IMG/VR virus record: IMGVR_UViG_3300045988_150084
Strand: one strand, 5' to 3'
Length of the DNA stretch: 64,000 nt
From: a virus
Both the position numbers and the translations under genes were made by a program. Of this stretch, positions 1-24,758 are shown piece by piece (within the stretch, counting starts at the first letter, position 1; the number at the start of each line of letters is the position of its first letter). Under the pieces are notes generated by a model, which saw only the letters and a list, made by a program, of their open reading frames with translations, had not been told where the DNA came from and made no database searches.

Positions 1-1683
1 CGTAAAGAAATCATGGTCTGTGACACCCTTGACAACACCGAAACGCTTCTTGGTCTTATTCATCAAAGTAAAACAAGCATTTTCAGCTGGAGTGGAGAAC
101 ACGGCATACGCAACGTGATATTTCTGTGTGGCCTTATCCGTCATAGCTTTCATGTGCTTGATGATTTCAAGGCCGAGTTCCTGAGATTTCTCCGATTCGC
201 CGTGATGTTTTCCAGTAAGAGCAATCAGACACTCAGCAAGACCAATGTAGCCTACCGAGAGAGAGCCATTTCTGAAACACTTCTCCATGCTATCGTTCTC
301 GTCTTTGAGGTTTTCATGTCCCATATACCACTTAGACGCAAACGGAAAATCTTTAGCCTTGAAGGAACACATGATACCGTACCGCTCGTGAAGTTCCCCG
401 ATAGCATCGCTTACTGCTTCGTGAAGAATATCCCAGAACTCGGACAGCGGGTCGGAAGGATTCTTCTCTTTTGCAAGCAGAGCAAGATAGGGAAGATTCA
501 CAGTATCAAAAGCAAGGTTGCCACGCGCTTCTGGGGAACTATCTCCGTTGATGTTCGTACCGACGTTCGTGCGACATCCCATTCTGGCGCAATTCATCTT
601 GTCTTTATACATATCGCTGTCAGCCAAGACGAAACGCGGCATGATTCTTATTCCTACACAATCTAAGGCAAGCATTGTAAGGTCAAAGTTAGGGTCACCT
701 TCGTAAAGATTGATACCCTTTTTCAGTCTAAAGCAGAGAACAGGGAAGAACGGCATTTCTCCATTCCCCATACCATCCATGAACGCTTTCAACGTCATTT
801 CAGAAATCATGCGTCCCCAGAAGGAAGTATCTGTACCGAAATTGATAGAAGAGAACACATTCTGGCCGCCACTGCGAGCCTTTTGAGTATTTGCATTGTA
901 TACGAACGCTTGCATGGCTTGGAAAACAGCATCCCTCGTGCGTTTCATGGCAAGCTCGTAGACCTTTTCGTAATTTACATATCCGTCACCATAGACTTCC
1001 TTGATTTGCTTCACTTGCCGCTTGTATTCTCCCTCTGCATACGGCGCGAGGTCGGTGTCCCAATGTACATATCCTTCGCCGCCGAAGAAATTACTCTGCA
1101 TGGACTGGAGGATGATACTAGCCAATGCTCCTGCCGTCGTGATATGCTTCGGAGGTCTTACATACCCTGTACCATTGTCAAATCCCTCTTTCAGCATTTT
1201 ATAGAGGGGAGAGAAAAAACAGTTTACACTCATGTGCCTATACGGAAGGTCGTGAATATAGCAGATACCCTTTCGATGATTTTCCGCATACTTCGGATTC
1301 ATCTTGAGAAGCTCGGTTTCCTTGAGAACATGTTCAGCAACAAAGTGAGCCTTAGAAGCCATACTATTCTCACTGTTCGCGTTATCTTTGGACGCTTCGA
1401 GAAGTAAACCGTCAATACCCTTCACCATATCCGTTTTCCCAAGACGATAATCTGTGCGTTTCTGCCGATAGAGGATATACGCCTTGGCAACGTCAGGATA
1501 TTTCTCCATCAACTTCTTTTCTACCGCATCGTGAATCTCATCCACGGTTACGTCCCTATCGAACGAGATTTCACTAGCGATTTCCTTGCCAACTTCTGCG
1601 CTCTTAGCGGCTTTCGCCACCGCGTTTTCAATCTTTTCTCTTTTGAACGGCTCCTTCCGTCCGTCATGCTTCGTTACTGTCAT
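1..1683 (-). CDS. nrdD: Anaerobic ribonucleoside-triphosphate reductase (class III, NrdD), N-terminal 561 aa; C-terminus runs off the window start
   Basis: My own minus-strand translation is open from the ATG at 1683..1681 (GGAGG RBS upstream) to position 1, in frame with the window edge. The N-terminus MTVTKHDGRKEPFKREKIENAV is an ATP-cone and the body looks NrdD-like. Family call rests on remembered motifs. Confidence 0.6.
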   Translation of the reverse strand, partial: MTVTKHDGRKEPFKREKIENAVAKAAKSAEVGKEIASEISFDRDVTVDEIHDAVEKKLMEKYPDVAKAYILYRQKRTDYRLGKTDMVKGIDGLLLEASKDNANSENSMASKAHFVAEHVLKETELLKMNPKYAENHRKGICYIHDLPYRHMSVNCFFSPLYKMLKEGFDNGTGYVRPPKHITTAGALASIILQSMQSNFFGGEGYVHWDTDLAPYAEGEYKRQVKQIKEVYGDGYVNYEKVYELAMKRTRDAVFQAMQAFVYNANTQKARSGGQNVFSSINFGTDTSFWGRMISEMTLKAFMDGMGNGEMPFFPVLCFRLKKGINLYEGDPNFDLTMLALDCVGIRIMPRFVLADSDMYKDKMNCARMGCRTNVGTNINGDSSPEARGNLAFDTVNLPYLALLAKEKNPSDPLSEFWDILHEAVSDAIGELHERYGIMCSFKAKDFPFASKWYMGHENLKDENDSMEKCFRNGSLSVGYIGLAECLIALTGKHHGESEKSQELGLEIIKHMKAMTDKATQKYHVAYAVFSTPAENACFTLMNKTKKRFGVVKGVTDHDFFT

Positions 1684-1849
1684 TCTTCTCCTCCAAAACC
1701 TTATACATACCTCCCGCTCGATAAGCAACAACTACGTTACCCTCGGCATCCTTGAACAAGTACACATCGCCACAATCGCACCTAGCATACCCATTCTCCA
1801 TATACTTATCCCACAGTACATCCCAGCACCTTGCACACTTGACTTTCAT
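1664..1849 (-). CDS. Small Cys-containing protein (61 aa), possible zinc ribbon
   Basis: ORF track entry with a CxxC...CDC pattern. It overlaps the nrdD start and the phoH stop. Confidence 0.35.
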   Translation of the reverse strand: MKVKCARCWDVLWDKYMENGYARCDCGDVYLFKDAEGNVVVAYRAGGMYKVLEEKNDSNEA

Positions 1850-2508
1850 ACTGCAAAATCCTCTGCAAGCTGACTGAACTTACCACGGAAATTTTTCGTA
1901 AGGGAAATCGAATTGCCGAGAACTGACAGATATTTACCATACTTCACAAAATCATTGTTATGATAACCCCTGTTGTCCTTCTGGAAACTGTCTCCGATAA
2001 GCACCACATGGCAATCATCGTGGCAACGTGTGAAAATGAGCTTCAAGGTTTCATAGTCGCAGTTTTCGGCTTCATCGATAATCACGCCAGCGTTCTCAAA
2101 ATTTACGCCCCTGAGATTACTGTCTGTGGTCAAGTGCAAGAGCTTCCCTGCCCTGAGTGCTTGAATCTCATACGGTGTGAATCCCAGCGTCTCCATAGCG
2201 TCGTACACAGGGTTAAACAACGCTTCTGTCTTATCCTCCATAGTCCCAGGTAAAAATCCGTTCTGCAAGAACCTCTGAGAGACTTTCTGGATATAAATAA
2301 TCTTGTTGATTACGTCATTCGCCAGAAGGTCAATCATAGCTGCACAGGAAACAATCGTCTTGCCAGTACCAGCCGCGGCTTCGATAAAGGTAAACACATT
2401 GTCTGTGATACTGCTGAAAGCATCCTTCTGCTCCTGCGTCATGCCTGCATAGAACCTATCGCGGTCTTTTCTATTCTTGAGTTCGATATATGGCTTATCG
2501 TTCACCAT
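1846..2508 (-). CDS. phoH: PhoH-like ATPase
   Basis: Walker A motif AAAGTGKT and PhoH-like length and motif layout. PhoH is common in phages. Confidence 0.65.
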   Translation of the reverse strand: MVNDKPYIELKNRKDRDRFYAGMTQEQKDAFSSITDNVFTFIEAAAGTGKTIVSCAAMIDLLANDVINKIIYIQKVSQRFLQNGFLPGTMEDKTEALFNPVYDAMETLGFTPYEIQALRAGKLLHLTTDSNLRGVNFENAGVIIDEAENCDYETLKLIFTRCHDDCHVVLIGDSFQKDNRGYHNNDFVKYGKYLSVLGNSISLTKNFRGKFSQLAEDFAV

Positions 2509-2743: not shown

Positions 2744-3199
2744 CTACCTCCAAATCTTCACCAAGATACGTTGTCTACCAAAACGAAAGGCTTCTTTCTT
2801 TGTGTTCATGTAAATATCTATTCGATTTGTATATCCACCACCGAACCTATCTTCGACGGTGTAAATGTGACCGTTTATTTCAACCTTTGTACCGAAGGGA
2901 ACGCCGTCCATAGCGATTGTCCTGCCAGCTGTTGCTCTCCTGCCGCTTGCTGTTATGCCGTCACCCTTGCCGCACTCATCGTCCGAAGAGGTATAAGCAC
3001 TAACATTGGCAACCATCTCTCGATAAGCAGGTTCTTCTACCTTCTGAACAGACTCAACAACAGGCTCTTTTACAGGTGATATGTATGTATCGTGCCAAAC
3101 CTTATGAGCCTTTGCCGCATGATGAGGTTTTAGCAGCAGGAACACAACGAGGACAGCCTTGACCAAACCGAAAAACAGTTTACGACCCAACGACACCAA
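2744..3199 (-). CDS. 3D-domain protein with N-terminal signal/TM segment (cell-wall binding, lytic-transglycosylase-like)
   Basis: The C-terminal stretch GRTIAMDGVPFGTKVEINGHIYTVEDRFGGGYTNRIDIYM matches the 3D-domain pattern of YocH/YuiC/MltA. The N-terminus is hydrophobic. The ORF begins with TTG/GTG, so the exact start is uncertain. Confidence 0.55.
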   Translation of the reverse strand: MVSLGRKLFFGLVKAVLVVFLLLKPHHAAKAHKVWHDTYISPVKEPVVESVQKVEEPAYREMVANVSAYTSSDDECGKGDGITASGRRATAGRTIAMDGVPFGTKVEINGHIYTVEDRFGGGYTNRIDIYMNTKKEAFRFGRQRILVKIWR

Positions 3200-3767
3200 A
3201 CTCCTCTGCCCACGGAAGAGTGCTGATAAACTGGCAGAACTCTCTCCACTCAGGAAGTCTATGATTGTGCCGCTGATACCAGATGGTTTTTAACTGAGCG
3301 TAGTTCGTGACGATACCAGCGCCGATACAGATACCCTCTGGCATATTTGCCTTGACCGCGAGGAGATTTTCCTCAGATGGATGTTCTACATACTCCGAAA
3401 CAATATCCTCAAAAATACCAAGGATAGTAGGATGTACATACTTGTTCGCCATCTTTTTATAGTCCAGAGATTTTACCTTGTGCATCGAGGACATACTATT
3501 CTTTGTGAACCAATGGTATGTATCGTGCTGTTGCCACCAATACCGAGGAGCGATGATATCATATCCCACCGTAATCTGTCTGAGGAATTTATCATCCCCA
3601 TGACCATACGGAGAATTACCCAGCTTGTCACCTCGCTTAATCAGCTTGACCTTATCTACGTCCATATCATTCATATCCTTGATTTCTGTGGACATAGGGT
3701 AGCCAGCGCGAATAAGCGCTTCTTGAATCCCCCATACGTCAACATTAAGAATTTTTATGTGCTCCAT
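3180..3767 (-). CDS. ThyX-like (flavin-dependent thymidylate synthase fold) protein with a degenerate active-site motif
   Basis: HGDDKFLRQITVGYDIIAPRYWWQQH aligns with ThyX [30 protein letters not shown], but the RHR motif is replaced by QQH. An ATG with a GGAGG RBS sits at 3767, whereas the ORF track starts at an upstream TTG. Confidence 0.5.
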   Translation of the reverse strand: MEHIKILNVDVWGIQEALIRAGYPMSTEIKDMNDMDVDKVKLIKRGDKLGNSPYGHGDDKFLRQITVGYDIIAPRYWWQQHDTYHWFTKNSMSSMHKVKSLDYKKMANKYVHPTILGIFEDIVSEYVEHPSEENLLAVKANMPEGICIGAGIVTNYAQLKTIWYQRHNHRLPEWREFCQFISTLPWAEEFGVVGS

Positions 3768-4056
3768 GTTTACCTCCTCGAATCGCAATCAGGTATCTAG
3801 CCTTGCCAATCGCCGCGTCATCTGCCTTATAGACAAGATTCATACCTGTCGAATAATCAAAATCGCAGAACATATCGAAGAGAGGAGCTTCTTTGCTTTC
3901 TTCTGGGTAATTCCTTTGCAATTCCACCAGTTGTTTAGCTCTTTTCGTCCAGTCCGCATCCGAGATGATATTTTCATTGAATTTATAGTAAACAACTGAA
4001 TGGACAAGCGTTTGAAGCCGTCTTCTCTTGATAAGTTCTACGATTTGTTCATTCAT
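3745..4056 (-). CDS. Hypothetical protein (103 aa)
   Basis: ORF track entry in an operon-like arrangement. Confidence 0.4.
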   Translation of the reverse strand: MNEQIVELIKRRRLQTLVHSVVYYKFNENIISDADWTKRAKQLVELQRNYPEESKEAPLFDMFCDFDYSTGMNLVYKADDAAIGKARYLIAIRGGKHGAHKNS

Positions 4057-4733
4057 TATTTCCCTGTGCTCCCAATACCGCCATCACGCAAATCGACAGG
4101 AACATCCTCACCAACAAGGAACTTCTGGAAGATACCCTGTGCAATCTTATCTCCCTTATGGATAGCATGCGGCTCATCGTCGTAGTTATACAGGAAAATC
4201 ATAATATGACCCTCATTTGAAGAGTTGTTGTAGTAGTCAGAATCAATAATTCCCACCGAATTAGGAAGGATAAGGTGCTTCTTTACCCCCATCGAAGAAC
4301 GAGGATAGATTTTCAACACCTCATCGGAGAGCATATACGCTTTCACTCCAGAAGGGATGCTCTTTTGTTCACCGCTACCGATAACGCAATCGATAGGAGA
4401 ATAGAAATCGTATCCTGCCGAGAAAATTGTGCTACGCCTTGGAAGGATAATATCCTCTGGGTTGAGGTTTGTGTTCTCTACCCTCTCGAAGCCGCGCACA
4501 GGTCTTTCCAGTACGTCGCAGAAGGAATTACAAACGCCTTCAATAGCACTCATCCGAAGACCCTTCATAATCTTCTTCTCTTCCCCTGTCACGTTGTTCT
4601 TTTCACAGAACTTATCGAAAAGTTTTTTCTCTCTGCGTACTGCTTCAACCAAAATCTGTGCTGCGTCACCCTTGTTCATCTGCGTTTTCCTTTCTTGTTC
4701 TGTGTTTTCCAATCCATCAATTTCTTCTGCCAC
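4056..4733 (-). CDS. dut: dUTPase (dUTP pyrophosphatase) with an ~80-aa N-terminal extension
   Basis: dUTPase motifs are present: AGYDF, RSS, GIIDSDYY and a C-terminal RDGGIGSTGK. The annotated start is GTG, so the true start may lie downstream. Confidence 0.75.
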   Translation of the reverse strand: MAEEIDGLENTEQERKTQMNKGDAAQILVEAVRREKKLFDKFCEKNNVTGEEKKIMKGLRMSAIEGVCNSFCDVLERPVRGFERVENTNLNPEDIILPRRSTIFSAGYDFYSPIDCVIGSGEQKSIPSGVKAYMLSDEVLKIYPRSSMGVKKHLILPNSVGIIDSDYYNNSSNEGHIMIFLYNYDDEPHAIHKGDKIAQGIFQKFLVGEDVPVDLRDGGIGSTGK

Positions 4734-4951
4734 GGCTCAAGCTCTTCATAAGGAGGAAGACCGCCTATACAATGTTTCAGAATACCTCTCTCAAGGTTTT
4801 CATCGACGATTTTTTCCATTTTCTGCTTGTACTCGTCAGCATTTTTTCTTTCGGAATCATAGTAAATCCATGTTCCATGATACTTGTACTTGTCCAAATA
4901 TTCTGTCCTCCCCGATAAGCAAAGTTTTAATACTCCAGACTTCATAAGCAT
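4676..4951 (-). CDS. Hypothetical protein (91 aa)
   Basis: ORF track entry only. Confidence 0.3.
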   Translation of the reverse strand: MLMKSGVLKLCLSGRTEYLDKYKYHGTWIYYDSERKNADEYKQKMEKIVDENLERGILKHCIGGLPPYEELEPWQKKLMDWKTQNKKGKRR

Positions 4952-5182
4952 CTGTCTCCATTACGCAGGAGAATTTGAACGAAGCACACGCTCCAAACAT
5001 CACGCCGCGATTTCTTTTCGCGGAATACGATACTTAACGCATATCTAGGCCGCCATAGATGCCTTTCATTTTAAGGGGGTCGACTCCGCAGAGTATTGAC
5101 CTCCCGAGACTTACACTATGGTTTTCGATATATGCTTTGCGCTGTATCGGAGTTTTAATGTCTTTTCTTTGACAAATAATGA

Positions 5183-5253
5183 AGACAGCGGCAGGACTTG
5201 AACCTGCGGCAATACCTTATCGGCAAGAACGGTTCCACACCATATTCGCTGTC
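5183..5253 (-). tRNA. tRNA-like element, possibly a degenerate tRNA; anticodon unresolved
   Basis: There is a perfect 7-bp acceptor pairing (GACAGCG/CGCTGTC) and a canonical T-arm (GCAGG TTCAAGT CCTGC). The D and anticodon arms do not fold canonically. It lies 4 nt from the tRNA-Thr gene. Confidence 0.35.
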
Positions 5254-5257
5254 ATAA

Positions 5258-5333
5258 TGGAGCTACCAGTAAGACTCGAACTTACAACCTTCTGATTACA
5301 AGTCAGATGCACTACCAGTTGTGCTATGGTAGC
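5258..5333 (-). tRNA. tRNA-Thr (anticodon TGT), CCA encoded
   Basis: Hand-folded cloverleaf: acceptor GCTACCA/TGGTAGC, D-stem GCAC/GTGC, anticodon loop CTTGTAA, T-loop TTCGAGT, then discriminator T and CCA. Confidence 0.7.
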
Positions 5334-5528
5334 ATGTAGCCGTCAACACCTCTGTGAAGACATCAACGGCATGTGCGGTTAAATTTTATAGAGCGATACC
5401 GTCAAGCTCTAGGAGTGCCAACGCCCAGTTTACGGATTCTAGTCACAGCTATACCGATGGCTATCTTGTTTTGCACCCAGAAGGAGGTACTGAGTGCTTT
5501 ATATAAAAGAGTTTCCTCTCTTATAATC

Positions 5529-5616
5529 TGGTGGGTAGGAGTGGATTTGAACCACCGAAGACATAAAGCCAGCAGATTTACAGTCTGTCTCCTTTAGCCA
5601 ACTTGGATACCTACCC
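5529..5616 (-). tRNA. tRNA-Tyr (anticodon GTA), class II with a long variable arm, CCA encoded
   Basis: Acceptor GGGTAGG/CCTACCC, anticodon loop CTGTAAA, T-loop TTCAAAT, 88 nt. The long variable arm fits bacterial tRNA-Tyr. Confidence 0.6.
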
Positions 5617-5617
5617 A

Positions 5618-5692
5618 TGGCGGGGGATGTTGGACTCGAACCAACGATGCAGGAGTCAAAGTCCTGTGTCTTAACCACTTGACGAATCCCCT
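5618..5692 (-). tRNA. tRNA-Gln (anticodon TTG), CCA encoded, A1:C72 mismatch at the end of the acceptor stem
   Basis: Acceptor AGGGGAT/ATCCCCC, anticodon stem CAGGA/TCCTG with loop CTTTGAC, T-arm GTTGG TTCGAGT CCAAC. It lies 1 nt from the tRNA-Tyr gene. Confidence 0.6.
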
Positions 5693-5694
5693 AT

Positions 5695-5771
5695 TGGTGT
5701 ACCAAGAGCGGCTCGAACGCTCGACCTACGGATTAAAAGTCCGTTGCTCTAGCCTACTAAGCTATTGGTAC
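5695..5771 (-). tRNA. tRNA-Lys (anticodon TTT), CCA encoded
   Basis: Acceptor GTACCAA/TTGGTAC, D-arm GCTT..GAGC, anticodon stem ACGGA/TCCGT with loop CTTTTAA, T-arm GAGCG TTCGAGC CGCTC. Confidence 0.7.
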
Positions 5772-5775
5772 ATGA

Positions 5776-5862
5776 TGGTGCGAAAGACGGGAATCGAACC
5801 CGTACAGTATTTCTACTGGGGGATTTTAAGTCCCCTGCGTCTGCCAGTTACGCCACTCTCGC
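5776..5862 (-). tRNA. tRNA-Leu (anticodon TAA), class II
   Basis: Acceptor GCGAGAG/CTTTCGC with one G-T pair, D-stem GCGT/ACGC, anticodon stem GGGGA/TCCCC with loop CTTAAAA, a long variable stem-loop CAGTAGAAATACTG, T-arm ACGGG TTCGATT CCCGT. Confidence 0.65.
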
Positions 5863-6126
5863 ATGATAAATGGTTTTAGCGTTTTTTCCTTAACGACCTA
5901 GCTTTTCAGATGTGTTTTAGTGCTGGCCAGTCACTTCAAGCATAGTCCCATTCACATCAGGGGCTTTAGGATTCGGTGCGATGCTCCTGCCATTTCAGAC
6001 AGGTTACATTGTAGAGATGGTTCCAAGAGGTTTTCTTCTCTCAGGAAGTTCTCCTCATTACGGTTTATATCATATCACTTTTTCGGTCTGTTGTAAACAA
6101 AAAATTTATTTATATAACGTAATTTT

Positions 6127-6705
6127 TCATTTACCCAACTCATCGAAGAAAGACGGCTGGAGTGCGAACATGAAGTCCTTATATGACTCATCGAGGGAAA
6201 CCATGTCAGCATAGTCTTGTTCAAAAAACTTGTGCAGTTCCCCATAGTTACGGTCAGAGACTTCTCGAATAGCATACTTCTCGCCGCTCTCGCTCTCAAT
6301 CACGTTACCGTTCACGGTCTTGGAGTGCTTTACTAAGTCGTAGAAGATATTCTCATCCATGACATAGCAGAATCCTGTGATATAAAGTATCTTCTTCTCG
6401 CCGATTAGTTTACGAATCCGCTCAAAAGACTGCCGTTTCTTGTTCTCTACCTTGCGTTCTACGCCGAAGATGGTCACGCGCAAGTCAGAATCAGCACCCT
6501 CACGAATCTTTTTATACGCGCCAGAACCGTCAATGATACGAGCTTCAAACCCCTGTCTCTGAAAATGCAGGAGCAACTTTTTTTCAGACTTCTTTCCTCG
6601 CCGCTTATTGGAACGACCGATAGCCTGTCTCGATTTGCTCTTCTTACGCTCAAACTTGTTGTACTCTTTACACTTACGACACATACCGCGAGTCTCACTA
6701 GACAA
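6127..6705 (-). CDS. Putative Holliday-junction resolvase (Hjc/RecU-like PD-(D/E)XK) with a basic N-terminal tail
   Basis: RQGFEARIIDGSGAYKKIREGADSDLRVTIFGVERK resembles the Hjc/RecU E...SG...D..[IV]..E.K core. The assignment is tentative. Confidence 0.4.
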   Translation of the reverse strand: MSSETRGMCRKCKEYNKFERKKSKSRQAIGRSNKRRGKKSEKKLLLHFQRQGFEARIIDGSGAYKKIREGADSDLRVTIFGVERKVENKKRQSFERIRKLIGEKKILYITGFCYVMDENIFYDLVKHSKTVNGNVIESESGEKYAIREVSDRNYGELHKFFEQDYADMVSLDESYKDFMFALQPSFFDELGK

Positions 6706-6716
6706 GCAGTACGGCT

Positions 6717-6905
6717 TTACGACACACTCAGAAATGGTGCATCCACCTCCTCTACATCGTCAATCACGATATTCGCAAACATATCCTCATCTGCATAGTC
6801 CTCTGGATAATCAATCATCCTCTGTTTTGCTTCTTCCTTTGAGGTAGCGCGGACAATAGAACTATCTTCCGTATGCCACCTCACCCGATACATCTTAGCC
6901 TCCAA
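6717..6905 (-). CDS. Hypothetical protein (62 aa)
   Basis: ORF track entry only. Confidence 0.3.
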   Translation of the reverse strand: MEAKMYRVRWHTEDSSIVRATSKEEAKQRMIDYPEDYADEDMFANIVIDDVEEVDAPFLSVS

Positions 6906-7030
6906 AGTGGATATACCTTCCCGCTACTTTCTCGATTAGCGACAAAACACCGTTCATTACAACCCAGCCAAGTGCCAGACCAGCACTTAACATAGCTCCA
7001 TCGACAAACAACATATACATCACTTTCCTT

Positions 7031-7333
7031 TCAGTTAAATAGCCATTTTGCGAGCTCAAGGGCTTCCAAAAACAGCCACGCGCCCATAGTAAAAAAGAAC
7101 CCCATTAATACAAAAGGGAAAAGTTTCACCGTCACATCTGTAAAACCTTCAATAAAGCGTTTAACGACGAGAAGGAAAGGACGCGCCCCCTTTGCCAGCT
7201 CTGGATGTTTCTTATAAAGTTTACAATAAATATTATCCATAAACATTTTATTACTCCAATCTATCAGGTACAGGCTCTCCCCATAAATCATGCCGCGCAA
7301 TATCACAAAACATATCGGCAATGCCAAGTTCAT
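7031..7333 (-). CDS. Hypothetical protein with a C-terminal hydrophobic segment (100 aa)
   Basis: ORF track entry with a hydrophobic C-terminus. Confidence 0.35.
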   Translation of the reverse strand: MNLALPICFVILRGMIYGESLYLIDWSNKMFMDNIYCKLYKKHPELAKGARPFLLVVKRFIEGFTDVTVKLFPFVLMGFFFTMGAWLFLEALELAKWLFN

Positions 7334-7589
7334 TGATACCGAAAGAAATAGCCAGAGCCTTGTTGCCCTTTACTGTCTCGCGAATTTCCTTTAATGTTTC
7401 CAGATACTCCATTATCACCTTCGCTTTCATGTTGCAGATAAGGGGAGAACGACGGAGAGCAAGCTCTGCTGCGTAAAGAGCATTGTTTTCCTCATCTGAA
7501 AAGATAAACTTCATATCTTCTTTTTCTTCTTTCAGACGCATCTTTTCGATAATTTTAATAGCTTTCTTTCTCTTCATTTTACTCACCAA
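7251..7589 (-). CDS. Hypothetical protein (112 aa)
   Basis: ORF track entry in the early gene run. Confidence 0.4.
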   Translation of the reverse strand: MVSKMKRKKAIKIIEKMRLKEEKEDMKFIFSDEENNALYAAELALRRSPLICNMKAKVIMEYLETLKEIRETVKGNKALAISFGINELGIADMFCDIARHDLWGEPVPDRLE

Positions 7590-8092
7590 TCTTCACACAG
7601 AGCTAATTCTTCATCACCATATTTACACCACATATAGCTGCAATAATCGGCTTCATTGACGTGCTTGTTGAAATCATACCAAGCCATATCAACTAACCTA
7701 TCATACACTTTCCTTTTCTTGAAATAATACTTTTGAAGCAAGCGATATTTCGCCAGTTTCTTTCCTTTTTCAAGGTCAAACTCATCATCTGGATGGCACT
7801 TCGCAACACCGACCAGCCCATCTTTTGTAAGCTCATCGGCATACTTTCCTAGGCTGTCCTTCACTTGAATAGAGAGGTGTTTTTCTTCAAAGATACCATT
7901 TACGATTTGATAGCCGTCTGGCTCATCTCCAGAAAACCGAGCGTAGACATTGTTCCCCTTGCGCGTATACTCAATCATTGTTTTCCTCCTCAAGAAGTCC
8001 AAGTGCTTCTGGCAGACTGAGGATGCCATTTTTGTGTAGCCATTCTTTTTCCTTGTCCGCTTTCCATGACGCATCGGAGCAGAAATCATCAT
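7583..8092 (-). CDS. Hypothetical protein (169 aa)
   Basis: ORF track entry. Confidence 0.4.
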   Translation of the reverse strand: MMISAPMRHGKRTRKKNGYTKMASSVCQKHLDFLRRKTMIEYTRKGNNVYARFSGDEPDGYQIVNGIFEEKHLSIQVKDSLGKYADELTKDGLVGVAKCHPDDEFDLEKGKKLAKYRLLQKYYFKKRKVYDRLVDMAWYDFNKHVNEADYCSYMWCKYGDEELALCEDW

Positions 8093-8249
8093 ACCAATCT
8101 AGCAGAGACAGAATCACCTTTCCGCATCTATCGCACCTGCAAACATCATAAATCTTTACGTTCGCGTTCATATAGCTAGAAGAAATTACATACGCTGGAA
8201 TACGCTTTCCTTTCCGCTTATGTCCGAAGAGCTTACAAAGAATATTCAC
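7971..8249 (-). CDS. Hypothetical zinc-ribbon protein (CRCDRCGK); the start is probably internal
   Basis: ORF track entry. It has a GGAGGAATAG RBS before a GTG, and it overlaps the upstream gene so the true start may be later. Confidence 0.35.
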   Translation of the reverse strand: MNILCKLFGHKRKGKRIPAYVISSSYMNANVKIYDVCRCDRCGKVILSLLDWYDDFCSDASWKADKEKEWLHKNGILSLPEALGLLEEENND

Positions 8250-8262
8250 TATCTATTCCTCC

Positions 8263-8427
8263 TCAAAGAATAAATCCTGCAAGTTCCAAGAGTTTCAAGA
8301 GCAAGAAAACTCCCACACCGACCGCTAAAACTATGATGATAAATCTTGCCAAAAGTATAAGGAAACAGACTACGGCAACGAGAATAAACCAAAGTAAACC
8401 ACCGATAATACAGATAATTTCTTTCAT
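8263..8427 (-). CDS. Small hydrophobic membrane protein (about 54 aa), not in the ORF track
   Basis: My own translation is MKEIICIIGGLLWFILVAVVCFLILLARFIIIVLAVGVGVFLLLKLLELAGFIL. An AGGAGG RBS sits 6 nt upstream of the ATG, and the stop overlaps the next RBS. Coordinates are +/-2. Confidence 0.45.
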   Translation of the reverse strand: MKEIICIIGGLLWFILVAVVCFLILLARFIIIVLAVGVGVFLLLKLLELAGFIL

Positions 8428-8654
8428 TTGCTCCTCCTGTACTCCTCACAACTCCACGACAAATCTCCCATAGTGACAGGGGACTGTTTCATACTCTTTT
8501 TACAGAACTCAGAATCTTTATTTCTATGGCAGCTTGTCTCGGCGCAATCGGCTAAACAGAAGCAAATATCCGAACTTTTCCCTGTGTACTTCCATGTATG
8601 ATACTCCTTAGTCCCCAATTCTGGGTTTTGACCCACGACATCAAGGTTTTCCAT
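8424..8654 (-). CDS. Cys-rich small protein (76 aa)
   Basis: ORF track entry with multiple Cys pairs. Confidence 0.4.
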   Translation of the reverse strand: MENLDVVGQNPELGTKEYHTWKYTGKSSDICFCLADCAETSCHRNKDSEFCKKSMKQSPVTMGDLSWSCEEYRRSK

Positions 8655-8872
8655 TACTTGTTTCCTCCTCTGTTCAAAAACGACTTCTTGATATTCTTCA
8701 TCACACTTGCTGGAATACCAGCCGTAACACTCAGAGCAACCAATGTCTCCGATTTGCCGTCCGTATATCCATGAGAGTAATCACTTTCTTCTTTTGGAAT
8801 CATAGAAATTTCTTCACACACATCGGAGTACATACGGATAATTTCCTCTCTGATTTTATTGCTAAGTTCCAT
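8654..8872 (-). CDS. Hypothetical protein (72 aa)
   Basis: ORF track entry. Confidence 0.4.
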   Translation of the reverse strand: MELSNKIREEIIRMYSDVCEEISMIPKEESDYSHGYTDGKSETLVALSVTAGIPASVMKNIKKSFLNRGGNK

Positions 8873-9249
8873 TATTTATCCTCTCTTACCGTAATCCTTA
8901 ATGAGTCCTTACTTATTTCTCCTTCGATAAAAGAAATGATGTAGTCACCGTACAATTCGATTCGGAAGAATCCTCCATAAACAGAATTAATGAAAACAAT
9001 ACCTAATGAAAACTTGTCATGTATAACGCACACCTGTGTATCGTATTTATGTAAAAAGAGAGTCATATCGTTACCAATGACCACTTTATTATGTCCATTC
9101 ACGATAGAGGAAAAGAGGTCTTCAAGGGTTTTTATATTTTGGTAAGCGAGTTTTTTATTCTCCTTCGAAAAGTCTTGTATGTTCATCTTATAAGAGTGGA
9201 GCGTCACTACATTCCTTTCACCGAATACCGAACGTTCAATTATTTGCAT
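8872..9249 (-). CDS. Hypothetical protein (125 aa)
   Basis: ORF track entry. Confidence 0.45.
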   Translation of the reverse strand: MQIIERSVFGERNVVTLHSYKMNIQDFSKENKKLAYQNIKTLEDLFSSIVNGHNKVVIGNDMTLFLHKYDTQVCVIHDKFSLGIVFINSVYGGFFRIELYGDYIISFIEGEISKDSLRITVREDK

Positions 9250-11397: not shown

Positions 11398-11985
11398 TTA
11401 CATACGCCCTTTCTCTAAGCAATCTATTTCCCTATTGAGATACCACGCAGCTTTTCGGAGGTCTTGTAAGCTGTCGGCGGTCTTGTGCCCGGCGCGGGCG
11501 ATGTACTTGACTACGTTGCCGAGGTTAAAGCCGAGTCCCCATGCTTCGATGGCGTCGATAGCTTCAACACCGCCTGTCTTGTAATACGATGGATGATTAA
11601 CGGCTTCACGTTTCTCGATATGTTCAAGCTGCTCTTGTGCATACGTCGGAGCATCATCAGAGCCATGATTATCTTTTATTCCTGCTTCGTGTTTCCACAT
11701 ATCCTCAAGTGCAAATCTACAACCTATTGTACCCGGATTGCACCCGCACGAGTTCTTACACCTGCATTTACCGCAATTAGTCTTAGTCCTTACAAAATCA
11801 CGCGCCGCATAAGAGAGCGCCTGTTTGTATCTCGTGACCATCTGCTTTTCTTTTTTCGTATTCATTAGCTCTTCTTTCTCTTTAAGGTCTGCAAGCTGCT
11901 CCTGCGCGTATGTCGGAGCGTCAATGATGCAATCTTCTGCATCAATTTCATTTCCGTTTGTGTCGTAATGTACTGTTCTGCTCAT
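11398..11985 (-). CDS. DUF3310-family phage protein with an internally duplicated DAPTYAQEQL segment and a Cys cluster
   Basis: The C-terminal HPSYYKTGGVEAIDAIEAWGLGFNLGNVVKYIARAGHK...DLRKAAWYL fits the DUF3310 pattern. The tandem motif is visible in the sequence. Confidence 0.5.
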   Translation of the reverse strand: MSRTVHYDTNGNEIDAEDCIIDAPTYAQEQLADLKEKEELMNTKKEKQMVTRYKQALSYAARDFVRTKTNCGKCRCKNSCGCNPGTIGCRFALEDMWKHEAGIKDNHGSDDAPTYAQEQLEHIEKREAVNHPSYYKTGGVEAIDAIEAWGLGFNLGNVVKYIARAGHKTADSLQDLRKAAWYLNREIDCLEKGRM

Positions 11986-12002
11986 CTTCTTCTCCCTTCC
12001 TC

Positions 12003-12227
12003 CTATCCGCGTCCCATCATCTTGTTTACGATTCCATCTACCTCAGCCTTTTCATCATCGCTCAGATTGTCGTATTGAGGTGCGATAAACTCGGTTTCTT
12101 TCAGGGCTTTAAGTAGCGACTTTGCGAGAAAACTAAAGACACTTTTCGGAATGTCTGCTCCGCTCTTGTTCAGAATGTCCATGATTTCAGCTATTGCCAA
12201 AACGTCTGAAAGTTTATCCTTGTTCAT
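12003..12227 (-). CDS. Hypothetical acidic protein (74 aa)
   Basis: ORF track entry. Confidence 0.4.
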   Translation of the reverse strand: MNKDKLSDVLAIAEIMDILNKSGADIPKSVFSFLAKSLLKALKETEFIAPQYDNLSDDEKAEVDGIVNKMMGRG

Positions 12228-12736
12228 CTTCTTCTCCTCTTCTTCAAATGACTAATCTCTCTCATCAATCCAGCGAGGAAAACCTTATCCTTACTGTTCC
12301 ATGACTTTTTTAATTCTCTTGATAATGAACGAATCAGGTACATTTTCATGTCATTTTCCCTCGATTTGCTCATACTCTTTCTCTTAGCTTTCTTCACACA
12401 TTCAAGGTCAGTACCTACAAGAACGCCTATCTCATCGGGAATCTTGTCCTTCACGGCCTGATATAAAGCTCTCGGCATGACATAGTAGTTGTAGTGACCT
12501 TCAAAATTGTGTCCGTGCTTGCTGTGGAAATCCCCCTCAGAAACCTTTATCTCATAGCACCAGATTGTCCCCTTCGTGTTTGTCTGCATAAAGTCAACGC
12601 GCTTTTTTCCATACCAGCCAATAGTTACCTCTGGACAACCGAAAGTTCTGAACTCTACCGTTTTTCTGATAAGGGCATGTTCCAGCTTTAGTGTTTCTTC
12701 GCTTTTCATGCTAACCTCTTCAATACTCGAAAGCAC
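12224..12736 (-). CDS. Putative PD-(D/E)XK-fold nuclease (VRR-NUC/MmcB-like) with a basic C-terminus
   Basis: A D...YEIK arrangement (RVDFMQ...IWCYEIKVSEGD). The assignment is weak. Confidence 0.35.
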   Translation of the reverse strand: MLSSIEEVSMKSEETLKLEHALIRKTVEFRTFGCPEVTIGWYGKKRVDFMQTNTKGTIWCYEIKVSEGDFHSKHGHNFEGHYNYYVMPRALYQAVKDKIPDEIGVLVGTDLECVKKAKRKSMSKSRENDMKMYLIRSLSRELKKSWNSKDKVFLAGLMREISHLKKRRRR

Positions 12737-18679: not shown

Positions 18680-18722
18680 GTGAGCGTAGATGATTTTTGC
18701 TTATCGAGAAGGAGGAATTGCC

Positions 18723-19634
18723 ATGATTTCTATCGACGTAGGATTCGGTAACACTAAGGTGTATGACGGCGAAACCTTAAACGTGTTCCCCTCTATCTAT
18801 TACCGCGCCAAGGCAGCCGAAGCCGTGAACGACCCAAGAGATATGCTCCTTGAACTTGACGGTGAAAGGTATCATGTTGGTATCACAGCCCTGCATAAAG
18901 GTGGGGAGTCACAGATGGAGCGTCACAACCTCCTCCGTCACAAGCTCTTCATTCTCTCTGCGATTTGCGCTACAACGAGAGGGGATTTCTCCGATAAGGT
19001 TCTTCTTGGTCTTCCGATTAGCGACATGGAGACGATGAAGGAATCTGTTGAAGGATTGAAAGGCGTATACCACGTTATTTTCAACGGAGAGACGCGAGAA
19101 ATCAACATCACGGCTATTAAGGTATATCCCCAGTCAGAAGCCGTATACAACCTCCTAGAGCGTCAGGACGAGAATATCAGAGACAAGGCAATCGGTATCA
19201 TCGACGTGGGACAGAAAACAGTTGACCTCGCCTACTACAACTACGGCACGCTTGATGATGATAGGTGCGGTAGTCTCACAAAACTCGGTTGCAAGTCGGC
19301 ATACCTTGACATCCAGAAAGCGCTTAATCGTGTCTGCGACATCGATACTGAGTGGTATCTGGTATCTAAGTTCTTGAACCGCGAAGCAATAGAAGAAGAT
19401 AAGAATCGTGCGTTTGAGGACATGGCGCGTAAGATTCTGAGCGCAACCAGTAATCTTGGATGGAACTACCATGAACTCGATGCAGTATACCTTATCGGCG
19501 GCGGTAGTTCTTATGTTGAGCCGTTTGTAAAAGAGCATGTAAAGGTTCTTACTGGAGAGAGCGAAAAAGTTATTATTCCGTCTAACCCAGTATTCGCGAA
19601 TGTGAGGAGTTACTACGAGGGGGAATTGAAATGA
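18723..19634 (+). CDS. parM: ParM/StbA-like actin-type partition ATPase
   Basis: Phosphate-1 ISIDVGFGNTK, phosphate-2 GIIDVGQKTVDLA, adenosine motif LIGGGS. A GAAGGAGGAA RBS precedes the ATG at 18723; the ORF track starts at an upstream ATG with no RBS. Confidence 0.7.
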   Translation: MISIDVGFGNTKVYDGETLNVFPSIYYRAKAAEAVNDPRDMLLELDGERYHVGITALHKGGESQMERHNLLRHKLFILSAICATTRGDFSDKVLLGLPISDMETMKESVEGLKGVYHVIFNGETREINITAIKVYPQSEAVYNLLERQDENIRDKAIGIIDVGQKTVDLAYYNYGTLDDDRCGSLTKLGCKSAYLDIQKALNRVCDIDTEWYLVSKFLNREAIEEDKNRAFEDMARKILSATSNLGWNYHELDAVYLIGGGSSYVEPFVKEHVKVLTGESEKVIIPSNPVFANVRSYYEGELK

Positions 19635-23700: not shown

Positions 23701-23833
23701 CGCTCGTCGTGCCGTGGTCTGTCAGCGCCCAAGCAGTTTGTCCAAGCTCTCCGATTCGAGAAACCATCTCTGGAATTTTAGCAATGGCATCTCTCTTTGA
23801 GTAATGACTGTGCCTATGTAACCCTACGAACAT
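20765..23833 (-). CDS. dnaE: DNA polymerase III alpha subunit (DnaE-type, PHP domain plus polymerase core)
   Basis: 1022 aa. The N-terminal PHP motif is GLHRHSHYS...ALTDHGTTSG, and the length and layout are those of a replicative polymerase. Confidence 0.8.
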   Translation of the reverse strand: MFVGLHRHSHYSKRDAIAKIPEMVSRIGELGQTAWALTDHGTTSGLMEAYKETKKYNKEHGTSIKFIFGMEGYWVPNYYVKDRKASCHIILLAKNETGYHNLLRLATIGYGDKGNKPDNFFYTMRLTTEDIIAHKEGLIISSACMGGLLNPRNGDEWDYDLAYDRAKTFQDVFGEDFYVELQLGTDEEQKKYNQNMLDLATDLGISAYVTEDSHYVNKDEADTHRKWLGIDEDSTYYQTDDYYIHSEQQARDALSYLDGTIADELIEETERVADKCEQVEIPFGEKHYPVFEVPDGETPLSQMCKLVADGFKKKIVGHVPESEYPKYKAQIDHEIKVLDKIDYTNYMLMTEDFVRGCHNLGIRTGIGRGSVGGCLVAYLMDITRIDPIKYGLIFERFAHDKRSSSADIDTDVPNSRRGDAIQYLVDKYHEVYHVRTFGLMGERAAIQRAARSLGYEPSAIRNLPKTIEEQTDERLKDLAMKYVGIIQNYGCHASAVMLFSSDPTEWCAIEKQGEDYVCAYEYHDLEAMGLLKEDVLGIKTLDVIDNTCKMVEARYGASVDVDNLPDTDTATFDMLNHDDVLGCFQIESGGMRKIIQDIKPQNVFDIVPLVALYRPSTIQSGMVDEFTNRRKGQPFTYIHPWVEDCLKDTYGVMLYQEQAMQIVQAMAGYDLGQADVFRRAIGRKIPEEMAKLVPQFVNDCEKRGVSQDVAQKLAEWLSNAAAYQFNKSHSAAYGYTCYQTAYLKAHYPAEFLCAYLNAYNGDKQEDLLVYVNDARRHGIKILPPDARSHTCDWEVVDDKTIRMAINYISGIGDIPVPLDYQSYKKLPKDKVENLIKAGALDFLGDRSELLQDVYQSGTLDKLNRQLSTVKERIEKNKAIYETAKDGTKKKKEAHKKYLDYSSKYWDIEQKIKEVKNTDEDYDYKAGELEVLGMTFEDIFADYDTSKYQAPDEQDKRVRIVLGVVRRIKHWKQKNGKPMMFFTLECPDGTQHDMVMFNSVYVPIETNKIYRMSVVGNKFRSII

Positions 23834-24546
23834 TTCAACCTCTCCTCCGCAATCTCAAAATACGCATCATTCTGCTCCCAGCCGATATAGTTCCTGTTTG
23901 TATTCTTAGCCGCAATAGCCGTTGTTCCACTACCTATAAATGGGTCAAGAATTACATCCCCTTCGTTACTGTATGTCTTGATGAAGTATTCACACAATGA
24001 AACAGGCTTCTGCGTAGGATGTAGAGTCTTGCTAAAGGAAGGTCGCCATTGAACTTTTAGAACGTCGCGAGGGAATCTTGTACCAGTAGGGTTTTCACTA
24101 CGGAAACGTTTCATCGCGTTATAGTTACTACTATTTCTGTCTGTCAGCCCACACCGATACGGCTTACCGTGCCCCATAATAGGGTGATAGACAGGCAACT
24201 TATCGTAGAACACTAATACATTCTCGTGACACTTCATAGGCATCCGACGAGCATTTAGAAAACCTGTTGAGTTCGCTTTCTCACAAATCCATTCATATCG
24301 GAACATCTTAGGATTGGACATAACTACCGTTGCCGTGAATGGCATCTGAGTGAAAATGAGAATGGCAGAATTTTTCTTTGTCACCCTCTTAATTTCCTTC
24401 CAGAACGCATCCATATCAACAACCGTGTCCCATTTATTTCTTGTCGTGCCGTAAGGAGGGTCGGTCAACACCATGTCAACTGAATTATCAGGCAGAATCT
24501 TCATTCCCTCGATACAGTCACCGTGATAGATAATATTCTTTTCCAT
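23824..24546 (-). CDS. DNA methyltransferase, beta-class (DPPY then FxGxG), likely N6-adenine
   Basis: Motif IV VLTDPPYG near the N-terminus and motif I DPFIGSGTT near the C-terminus. The ATG start MEKNIIYHGD is at 24546. Confidence 0.7.
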   Translation of the reverse strand: MEKNIIYHGDCIEGMKILPDNSVDMVLTDPPYGTTRNKWDTVVDMDAFWKEIKRVTKKNSAILIFTQMPFTATVVMSNPKMFRYEWICEKANSTGFLNARRMPMKCHENVLVFYDKLPVYHPIMGHGKPYRCGLTDRNSSNYNAMKRFRSENPTGTRFPRDVLKVQWRPSFSKTLHPTQKPVSLCEYFIKTYSNEGDVILDPFIGSGTTAIAAKNTNRNYIGWEQNDAYFEIAEERLKCS

Positions 24547-24575
24547 ACAAAAAAAGAAGGAAGCTCTCGCTCCTC

Positions 24576-24758
24576 TCAGCAGACAACCCCGATAGCAGAG
24601 TTGAATCCGCACTTATATCCCCTTGTCGCTGCCTTGAGGGCCTCTTGAGCCTCGTGCAACGTTTTATAGCGTCCTACATGGTGCTTCTGCCTTACACCGA
24701 TACCGACACGCCATTTACCTCTTTCCGTATCAAACCAAATCACGCCATCTTTACGCAA
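24576..24758 (-). CDS. AP2-like DNA-binding domain protein (60 aa)
   Basis: GKWRVGIGVRQKHHVGRYKTLHEAQEALKAA resembles AP2 domains, which are often linked to HNH endonucleases in phages. Confidence 0.4.
   Translation of the reverse strand: MRKDGVIWFDTERGKWRVGIGVRQKHHVGRYKTLHEAQEALKAATRGYKCGFNSAIGVVC

Follow-up and report, generated by a model that had tools for sequence, protein, structure and literature searches.

A conserved phage protein family with a predicted ThyX-type fold, a rewritten active-site motif and genomic links to nucleotide metabolism

Flavin-mediated carbon transfer has a mechanistic model in the flavin-dependent thymidylate synthase ThyX, which is also a target of antibiotics and whose motif RHR is treated as its signature. 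A precedent for the ThyX fold acting on another nucleotide substrate is PolB of the polyoxin pathway, a ThyX homolog from a Streptomyces antibiotic cluster that methylates uridine monophosphate (UMP) and keeps both the ThyX motif and the flavin/folate chemistry. The known phage synthases that modify pyrimidines are, to our knowledge, all derived from the unrelated ThyA fold. Described here is a protein encoded at positions 3180-3767, minus strand, of a 64,000-nucleotide stretch of phage DNA (IMG/VR record IMGVR_UViG_3300045988_150084; the whole 64-kb stretch is called the window below). By the fold of its structural model the protein is a member of the ThyX superfamily. Its family, in contrast to PolB, lacks the ThyX motif and is phage-borne, and it is a conserved branch of the superfamily, not a decaying paralog.

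The T4 gp42/gp1 and RB69 gp48/gp159 systems (5-hydroxy-deoxycytidine monophosphate [dCMP] synthase; PMC13326640) share a gene logic with the family: an altered thymidylate synthase homolog, a deoxynucleoside monophosphate (dNMP) kinase and a deoxynucleoside triphosphate (dNTP) pyrophosphatase. However, T4 gp42 and RB69 gp48 have the ThyA fold, which is unrelated to the ThyX-like fold of this family, and no similarity of the family to ThyA was found. In contrast to these ThyA-type modification systems, none of the phages carrying the family is known to have a modified base. ThyX is a homotetramer that binds FAD where its subunits meet, and it uses CH2-THF and reduced flavin to methylate deoxyuridine monophosphate (dUMP) reductively, giving thymidine monophosphate (dTMP). 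In the Thermotoga maritima enzyme, R174 activates dUMP (PMC8316439), S88 and Y91 are acids towards the flavin carbinolamine, R90 polarises Y91 and R78 faces N1/C2=O of the flavin (PMC8316439, PMC11940539), and H53 stacks on flavin or folate and hydrogen-bonds Y91 (PMC11940539).

The open reading frame (ORF) named in the original prediction is real, with a ribosome-binding site, an ATG at 3767-3765 and a stop codon at 3182-3180, and its translation contains all the motifs that had been quoted for it, GHGDDKFLRQITVGYDIIAPRYWWQQHDTYH and TNYAQLKTIWYQRHNHRLPEW.

3180-3767, minus strand: ThyX-fold protein of 195 amino acids (aa), member of PHROG 6721 (ORF and translation; profile match, AlphaFold2 model and Foldseek search described below)
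3773-3779, minus strand: Shine-Dalgarno sequence of the gene, GAGGAGG, 5 nt ahead of its ATG at 3767 (direct reading of the DNA)

PHROG 6721 is the protein's own family (E 1.7e-60, 205 bits, residues 3-191 against profile positions 7-215 of 218). It carries no annotation and has no record of the ThyX relationship, the fusions or the pattern of gene neighbours reported here.

Sequence searches with the protein did not recover ThyX. There was no ThyX match in Pfam or NCBIfam, the protein falling below both the gathering score of PF02511 (24.8) and the cut-off of TIGR02170 (87.9), and in the PDB the only match by sequence was an arginase at a non-significant E of 1.6. A PDB search with the family profile returned only a chance match to a photosystem protein, and one with the relative P0088 returned no match. 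Among 31 aligned family members, eight matched the Pfam Thy1 family weakly (best E 5e-5). Of the relatives, P0224 alone passed the gathering score (29.3 versus 24.8), and one distant relative has a precomputed Thy1 match. The relationship is clearest at the level of structure. AlphaFold2, run without templates on the alignment of the family, gave a model of the monomer without ligands that had a mean predicted local distance difference test score (pLDDT) of 89.8 and a predicted template modelling score (pTM) of 0.86. Searched against the PDB with Foldseek, this model gave E-values from 1.7e-8 to 6e-8, a probability of 1.00 and template modelling (TM) scores of 0.61-0.69, and all 50 of the PDB matches listed were T. 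maritima ThyX. In BFVD its best matches were two family members that are uncharacterised, with ThyX proteins of phages next. The ThyX fold assigned in the original prediction is thus borne out by the model and by the Thy1 matches of the relatives.

The profile-profile comparison that had been suggested as a check did not reach significance. With hhalign the family gave no significant match either to T. maritima ThyX by itself or to a shallow alignment of ThyX sequences (the T. maritima sequence, verified against the PDB, plus relatives of at least 57% identity); in a deeper local run the family aligned with ThyX collinearly over the full length, in agreement with the local alignments of hmmsearch, but at a P of only about 0.07. 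Because hhalign reached no better than this, the case for homology is carried by the fold match and the Thy1 matches of the relatives. A ThyX-type fold is solidly predicted, the same as that of ThyX (PF02511, TIGR02170; TM0449; PDB 1O26, 4GT9, 8REO) over the full length and with a collinear order of motifs, and the residue-by-residue equivalences, which come from alignment, are good but not certain.

Residues were mapped in T. maritima ThyX numbering from two independent alignments (hmmsearch and hhalign), and column statistics were taken from 240 family sequences. Three segments of the putative active site were placed by these alignments and statistics:

3582-3605, minus strand: G55-L62 (GHGDDKFL), aligned with ThyX K50-F57, with D58 in place of the flavin/folate-stacking His53
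3480-3521, minus strand: T83-Y84-H85-x7-S93-S-M95-H96, aligned with ThyX RHRx7S and R90-Y91, the active-site loop
3246-3275, minus strand: Q165-R166-H-N-H169-R-L-P-E-W174, the family signature, with R166 aligned with R174 and H169 with H178

Both alignments put T83-Y84-H85 on ThyX R78-H79-R80 and S93 on S88. Since they agree, RHR is truly absent, as had been claimed, and no realignment restores it; the ThyX motif R-H-R-x7-S reads T83-Y84-H85-x7-S93 in the protein, with only the Ser kept. The loop ELSGRY of ThyX has become SQSTMH. The structure prediction that had been proposed as a second check returned the ThyX fold, and by alignment the site is kept at S88 (S93), N163 (N155), R174 (R166) and H178 (H169) but replaced at R90 (M95), Y91 (H96), H53 (D58) and R147 (K139). 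The equivalent of ThyX Q75 is also kept, as is that of H53 in most family members. The second ThyX-like block of the original prediction does exist, and aligns with the R174/H178 region.

These features are those of a family rather than of one protein. R166 and S93 are each present in 239 of the 240 sequences, H169 in 238, H96 in 233, M95 in 231 and N155 in 222. Position 84 is Tyr in 239 of 239, position 83 is Arg (125/240) or Thr (112/240), and position 85 is mostly His, Gly or Lys; position 58 is His in 157 sequences and Asp in 74, and the position of R147 holds Lys or a hydrophobic residue. The near-invariant columns are Y84, S91, S93, M95, H96, P143, G145, N155, Y156, Q165, R166, H169, L171, W174 and C178, and basic residues are conserved at positions 97, 160 and 170. 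Compared with ThyX, the family has TYH or RY[HR] where ThyX has RHR, with an invariant Tyr for His79, and it adds the signature QRxxHRLPEW...FC, which together with Y84 and SxSTMH makes up its own motifs; the protein of the window also differs from ThyX in having Asp for H53 and in lying under the Pfam and TIGR thresholds. With the equivalents of R174, S88, N163 and H178 kept and the loop and RHR rewritten, the family appears to keep the residues that touch the reacting uracil.

Two types of member can be told apart. Members with R83 have H58, and have neither R75 nor K139; members with T83, the type found in the window, have R75 (93/112), K139 (95/112) and mostly D58, so that nearly all members are basic at one or other position. 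A positive charge may thus have been moved rather than lost, as a compensation, and an 'arginine relocation' from R83 to R75/K139 is retained here only as a covariation, the two positions flanking a short helix in the AlphaFold2 model. In a tandem-duplicated relative, P0092, the N-terminal half alone retains the R/Y/QRxxHR set and the C-terminal half alone the SxSTMH set. Such a complementary loss is expected where the two sets come together between subunits, as they do in ThyX, and hints at a site built from two subunits.

The same residues allow for a ThyX-fold protein that binds nucleotide or flavin without catalysis, as a regulator, scaffold or sequestering protein in phage dNTP synthesis. 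The residues R78, R80, R90, Y91 and H53, which are catalytic in ThyX, are lost from the protein, and conservation of the pocket would fit binding alone as well. We consider this unlikely: R174 and S88, whose equivalents are kept, act in ThyX on those parts of the substrate that react (PMC8316439), and the gene fusions and the lack of a canonical synthase, both described below, also speak against it.

The family is large. A full HMMER scan of 1.84 billion representatives, clustered at 50% identity, found 4,203 members at E ≤ 1e-3 and 1,567 at E ≤ 1e-30, and in IMG/VR at least 586 stretches coding for a relative were picked up by a pattern scan. Among species-representative genomes the strict pattern HNHRLPEW found six loci, all in gut metagenome-assembled genomes, an undercount that says little about hosts. 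Some members are interrupted in frame by homing-endonuclease domains (HNH_3, NUMOD4, AP2 or HTH), at two sites: after about residue 30 (P0094, P0116, P0156) and after about residue 125 (P0200, P0203). The original prediction had called the protein degenerate and possibly inactive. An inactive ThyX remnant would explain the loss of the linear RHR and the missing Pfam match, but a decaying gene would not show so large a family with near-invariant polar residues at ThyX active-site positions, and it is contradicted by the conservation of about 20 columns. The intact ribosome-binding site, the translational coupling of the gene to its neighbours and the homing-endonuclease-like insertions (HNH_3, NUMOD4) that members carry also argue against it, and this explanation is hardly credible.

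The closest relatives of the protein come from rumen and gut metagenomes and from Selenomonas ruminantium, where a prophage of the chromosome and the 73-kb plasmid pSRC3 each carry one. Searching cultured phages by tblastn gave 25 records. Every named host is a strict anaerobe (Clostridium perfringens, Clostridioides difficile [the phiCD211 group], Fusobacterium, Enterocloster and Desulfovibrio), a restriction in which the cultured carriers of the family differ from ThyX and which may partly be an effect of sampling. The protein is called hypothetical in all of the annotated cultured-phage records. There is no characterised member in Pfam, PHROGs, NCBIfam, the PDB or the literature searched; literature searches gave no characterised ThyX-like family without RHR, and a paper on T-hypermodification names ThyX solely as a mechanistic comparison.

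Gene neighbourhoods were ranked without bias from same-strand ORFs within 4 kb of the family gene at 94 loci, which form 50 clusters at 70% identity; representatives of the neighbour clusters were checked against Pfam. The recurrent neighbours included the following, where RNR is ribonucleotide reductase:

NrdD: 20 of 50 clusters
dUTPase: 16 of 50 clusters
NrdG: 9 of 50 clusters
DnaB: 8 of 50 clusters
Class II RNR: 7 of 50 clusters
P-loop kinase related to the guanylate-kinase domain of P0201: 7 of 50 clusters
DNMK: 5 of 50 clusters
NT5C deoxynucleotidase: 5 of 50 clusters
Glutaredoxin-like protein: 5 of 50 clusters
DUF3310: 4 of 50 clusters

Most of the kinases lie less than 500 bp from the family gene, and in the P0079 loci a T4 gp1-type dNMP kinase (PF21448) overlaps it by 4 nt. 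NrdD and dUTPase genes adjoin it in the P0071 loci, and NrdD/NrdG and dUTPase genes in the P0088 loci. On pSRC3 (AP012300.1, locus L101), which also has an integrase and a primase-helicase, a class II RNR, a dUTPase and a DUF3310 protein are encoded nearby, and in the Selenomonas prophage (AP012292.1, locus L102) a 90-aa DUF3310 protein is encoded directly downstream (8617-8889). In ProddE, a T7-like Desulfovibrio phage, the family gene lies between those for the DNA polymerase and an exonuclease, followed by a DR2231-type NTP pyrophosphatase, a kinase and NrdD/NrdG. Three relatives are fusions: P0224 joins the ThyX-like protein to DUF3310 (a T7 gp1.7-type nucleotide kinase), P0201 to Guanylate_kin (32.3 bits, cut-off 25.2) and P0230 to dUTPase_2, a dimeric dUTPase (39.6 bits, cut-off 22.9). 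Same-strand linkage to genes for dUTPase, RNR and dNMP kinases was thus found across divergent phages. Phage ThyX genes have the same context (dUTPase, RNR, kinases), and the family gene holds the usual place of a thymidylate synthase in phage dNTP modules, after dUTPase and before dNMP kinase. Given that the family adjoins, or is joined to, ribonucleotide reductase, nucleotide kinases and dUTPase, its product is probably still a precursor of DNA. The same association would also fit a non-catalytic member of a dNTP-synthetase complex, but the fused enzymes act one step upstream and one step downstream of dUMP conversion.

In some gut-metagenome phages (loci L007-L009, about 4670-8650) nrdD is in three pieces, split by two free-standing HNH endonuclease genes. 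In the Selenomonas prophage a GLF/NAD_binding_8 flavoprotein resembling UDP-galactopyranose mutase (L102, 6905-8008) overlaps the start of the ThyX-like gene, with an ATP-grasp gene 5 kb downstream; found in this one prophage and not among the recurrent neighbours, the GLF-type flavoprotein was dropped as a partner.

The window shows the same association. The genes around the ThyX-like gene form a minus-strand string in the order dUTPase, Nlig-Ia, ThyX-like, 3D-domain protein, small ORF, PhoH, small zinc-ribbon-like ORF and NrdD. Its assigned neighbours, and the DUF3310 gene found elsewhere in the window, are as follows:

4056-4733, minus strand: trimeric-type dUTPase, 225 aa, domain at residues 95-206 (Pfam PF00692, E 3e-17; PHROG 135)
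3745-4056, minus strand: stand-alone Nlig-Ia protein, 103 aa, the NAD+-binding Ia domain of NAD-dependent DNA ligase (Pfam PF22745, E 1e-24; PHROG 6466)
2744-3199, minus strand: 3D-domain protein with a hydrophobic signal-like N-terminus, overlapping the stop codon of the ThyX-like gene (Pfam PF06725, 23.6 bits against a gathering score of 23.8; PHROG matches)
1846-2508, minus strand: PhoH-like ATPase (Pfam PF02562, E 7e-30)
1-1683, minus strand, running off the window: anaerobic ribonucleoside-triphosphate reductase NrdD with ATP-cone (Pfam PF13597, E 5e-109; PF03477)
11398-11985, minus strand: DUF3310 protein (Pfam PF11753; PHROG 236/1689, 'nucleotide kinase'), the same domain that is fused to the ThyX-like protein in P0224

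The ThyX-like gene overlaps its upstream neighbour by 23 nt and its downstream neighbour by 20 nt, and so belongs to one tightly packed string, in which the dUTPase gene sits two genes upstream. The nucleotide-metabolism operon of the original prediction was confirmed in its dUTPase, 3D-domain, PhoH and NrdD genes; the Nlig-Ia gene, wedged between the dUTPase and ThyX-like genes and overlapping both, had been missed. Promoter-like and terminator-like sites in the stretch of the string were not above chance.

No canonical ThyX or ThyA was found in the 64-kb window (including a phmmer search with Escherichia coli ThyA) or in the 94 related loci, and no canonical thymidylate synthase in the annotation of the complete genomes of the small phages XP41-N3 and ProddE. 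The FNU1 genome paper lists a dUTPase and no thymidylate synthase. The ThyX search profile was narrow; T. maritima ThyX alone detects the enzymes of Mycobacterium tuberculosis, Helicobacter pylori and PBCV-1, so canonical enzymes would have been seen. The term 'paralog' that had been applied to the protein does not fit these results, which leave no canonical thymidylate synthase in the window or the loci for a non-catalytic protein to regulate.

The explanation we favour, at about an even chance, is that the protein is an active ThyX-superfamily enzyme with a remodelled active site, acting at the dNMP level on dUMP. We infer the following path. Phage NrdD would provide dNTPs, the dUTPase encoded two genes upstream would convert dUTP to dUMP, and the ThyX-like protein would then modify C5 of dUMP, probably still with flavin. 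The simplest product would be dTMP, and a modified dNMP is also possible; the phage DUF3310 (gp1.7-type) kinase would then phosphorylate the product. This proposal is consistent with the family-invariant polar residues on ThyX active-site positions (S93, H96, R166, N155 and H169, with H58 in two thirds of members) and with fusion partners that act just before or after the dUMP-converting step. Several points weigh against it. Residues that cripple T. maritima ThyX when mutated are replaced in the protein: R90A reduces a key rate constant, Y91A cuts that constant by a factor of more than 100, and with Y91F the oxidation of the flavin is slowed about 1000-fold (PMC11940539, PMC8316439). The protein also replaces R78, which faces the flavin N1, and the stacking H53. 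The significance of the profile comparison with ThyX is marginal, and single residue equivalences therefore carry some risk. The covariation of R83, R75 and K139 may reflect just two clades, P0092 is a single sequence, and neighbourhoods and fusions demonstrate involvement with dNMPs and dNTPs rather than catalysis or the identity of a product.

A more specific proposal is that the protein makes a non-canonical pyrimidine dNMP for phage DNA (5-hydroxymethyl, 5-hydroxy or otherwise C5-substituted dUMP or dCMP), as a ThyX-superfamily counterpart of the ThyA-type T4 gp42 and RB69 gp48. The active-site loop is rebuilt (ELSGRY to SQSTMH), not conserved, and the family gene often has a dNMP kinase of its own next to it or joined to it; a ThyA homolog with a cognate dNMP kinase is a known signature of modified-dNMP pathways (PMC13326640). 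The NT5C-type deoxynucleotidases encoded nearby in 5 clusters could clear canonical dNMP, and the GLF-type flavoprotein gene overlaps the family gene in one Selenomonas prophage. However, the 16 commonest families of neighbours and the loci with examined Pfam tables showed no glycosyltransferase, 5-hydroxymethyldeoxyuridine (5-hmdU) DNA kinase, aGPT-Pplase or other downstream hypermodification gene, the small carrier phages (38-43 kb) have no annotated modification module, and dNMP kinases are also encoded by phages with ordinary DNA. This role is rather doubtful. NT5C-type enzymes can deplete canonical dNMP; a 5'(3')-deoxyribonucleotidase of this type (PF06941, E 2e-26) is encoded at 11625-12284 of locus L075 and at seven other loci.

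The broader idea of a first functionally distinct ThyX branch in viruses, a flavin-type enzyme marked by a rebuilt loop with SxSTMH and by Tyr for His79, which would make either a non-canonical C5-modified pyrimidine dNMP or dTMP by a variant mechanism or with variant cofactors suited to strictly anaerobic hosts, is put forward tentatively, as possible but well short of an even chance. The terms 'neo-functionalised' and 'part of a nucleotide-modification pathway', used in the original prediction, remain viable readings. As speculation, the confinement of the family to phages with anaerobic hosts and its pairing with class III/II RNR might point to an oxygen-sensitive chemistry or to an anaerobe-specific reductant.

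The remaining genes of the string were considered as partners and dropped. Nlig-Ia, the 3D-domain protein and PhoH occur near the family in 0, 2 and 4 of 80 IMG/VR loci, respectively, so that Nlig-Ia is not a conserved partner. The 3D-domain assignment is borderline, its score lying just under the gathering score, and the location of this likely cell-wall-active protein inside a nucleotide-metabolism string is odd. The dUTPases linked to the family are unusually long (225-275 aa; in the window, and at 10668-11495 in L007 and 11774-12598 in L013), with an N-terminal extension of about 90-130 aa, about 90 aa in the window dUTPase, that has no Pfam match.

The window as a whole is phage DNA, encoding a portal protein, a GH25 lysin, DNA polymerase III alpha, a primase-helicase, Rad52, an N6/N4 methylase and five tRNAs. 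By megablast it gave only a tRNA-sized match to phages and nothing to plasmids. The five tRNA genes (Thr, Tyr, Gln, Lys and Leu; 5258-5862, minus strand) lie just upstream of the nucleotide operon, and the tRNA-Lys region is the sole near match of the first 12 kb of the window to the phage collection (Ralstonia phage RSP15). An ALP_N/ParM-like actin is encoded at 18690-19634 (plus strand), which with the relative on pSRC3 suggests a phage-plasmid lifestyle, and a single ORF of 2,909 aa lies in the structural region at 37360-46089 (minus strand). The adenine methyltransferase to which the original prediction had linked the protein is present as a gene:

23824-24612: N6/N4 DNA methylase, in the replication module, 20 kb from the ThyX-like gene

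The link itself found no support, given this distance and the absence of the methylase from the 16 commonest neighbour families.

The tRNA genes, 1.5 kb from the ThyX-like gene, also bear on an action on polynucleotides (uracil in DNA or tRNA), or an unrelated role such as anti-defence, on a ThyX scaffold. In some phages the family gene lies within replication and recombination modules, and the arginines conserved in ThyX (equivalents of R78, R80, R90 and R147) are missing here; some of these hold the phosphate of the mononucleotide in ThyX. However, the conserved basic residues at 97, 160 and 170 could bind phosphate instead, and the fused and adjacent partners are mononucleotide enzymes, which makes such a role very unlikely.

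Members of this family fall outside the ThyX motif and the ThyX profile thresholds, and they should therefore not be annotated as ThyX thymidylate synthases without experiment, though they belong to the ThyX superfamily by the fold of the model. If the family is active, either ThyX chemistry tolerates a very different active site or a modified DNA base is reached by a new route. The family is also a large set of phage genes, labelled 'hypothetical' in the viromes of gut and rumen, that could now be given a testable annotation.

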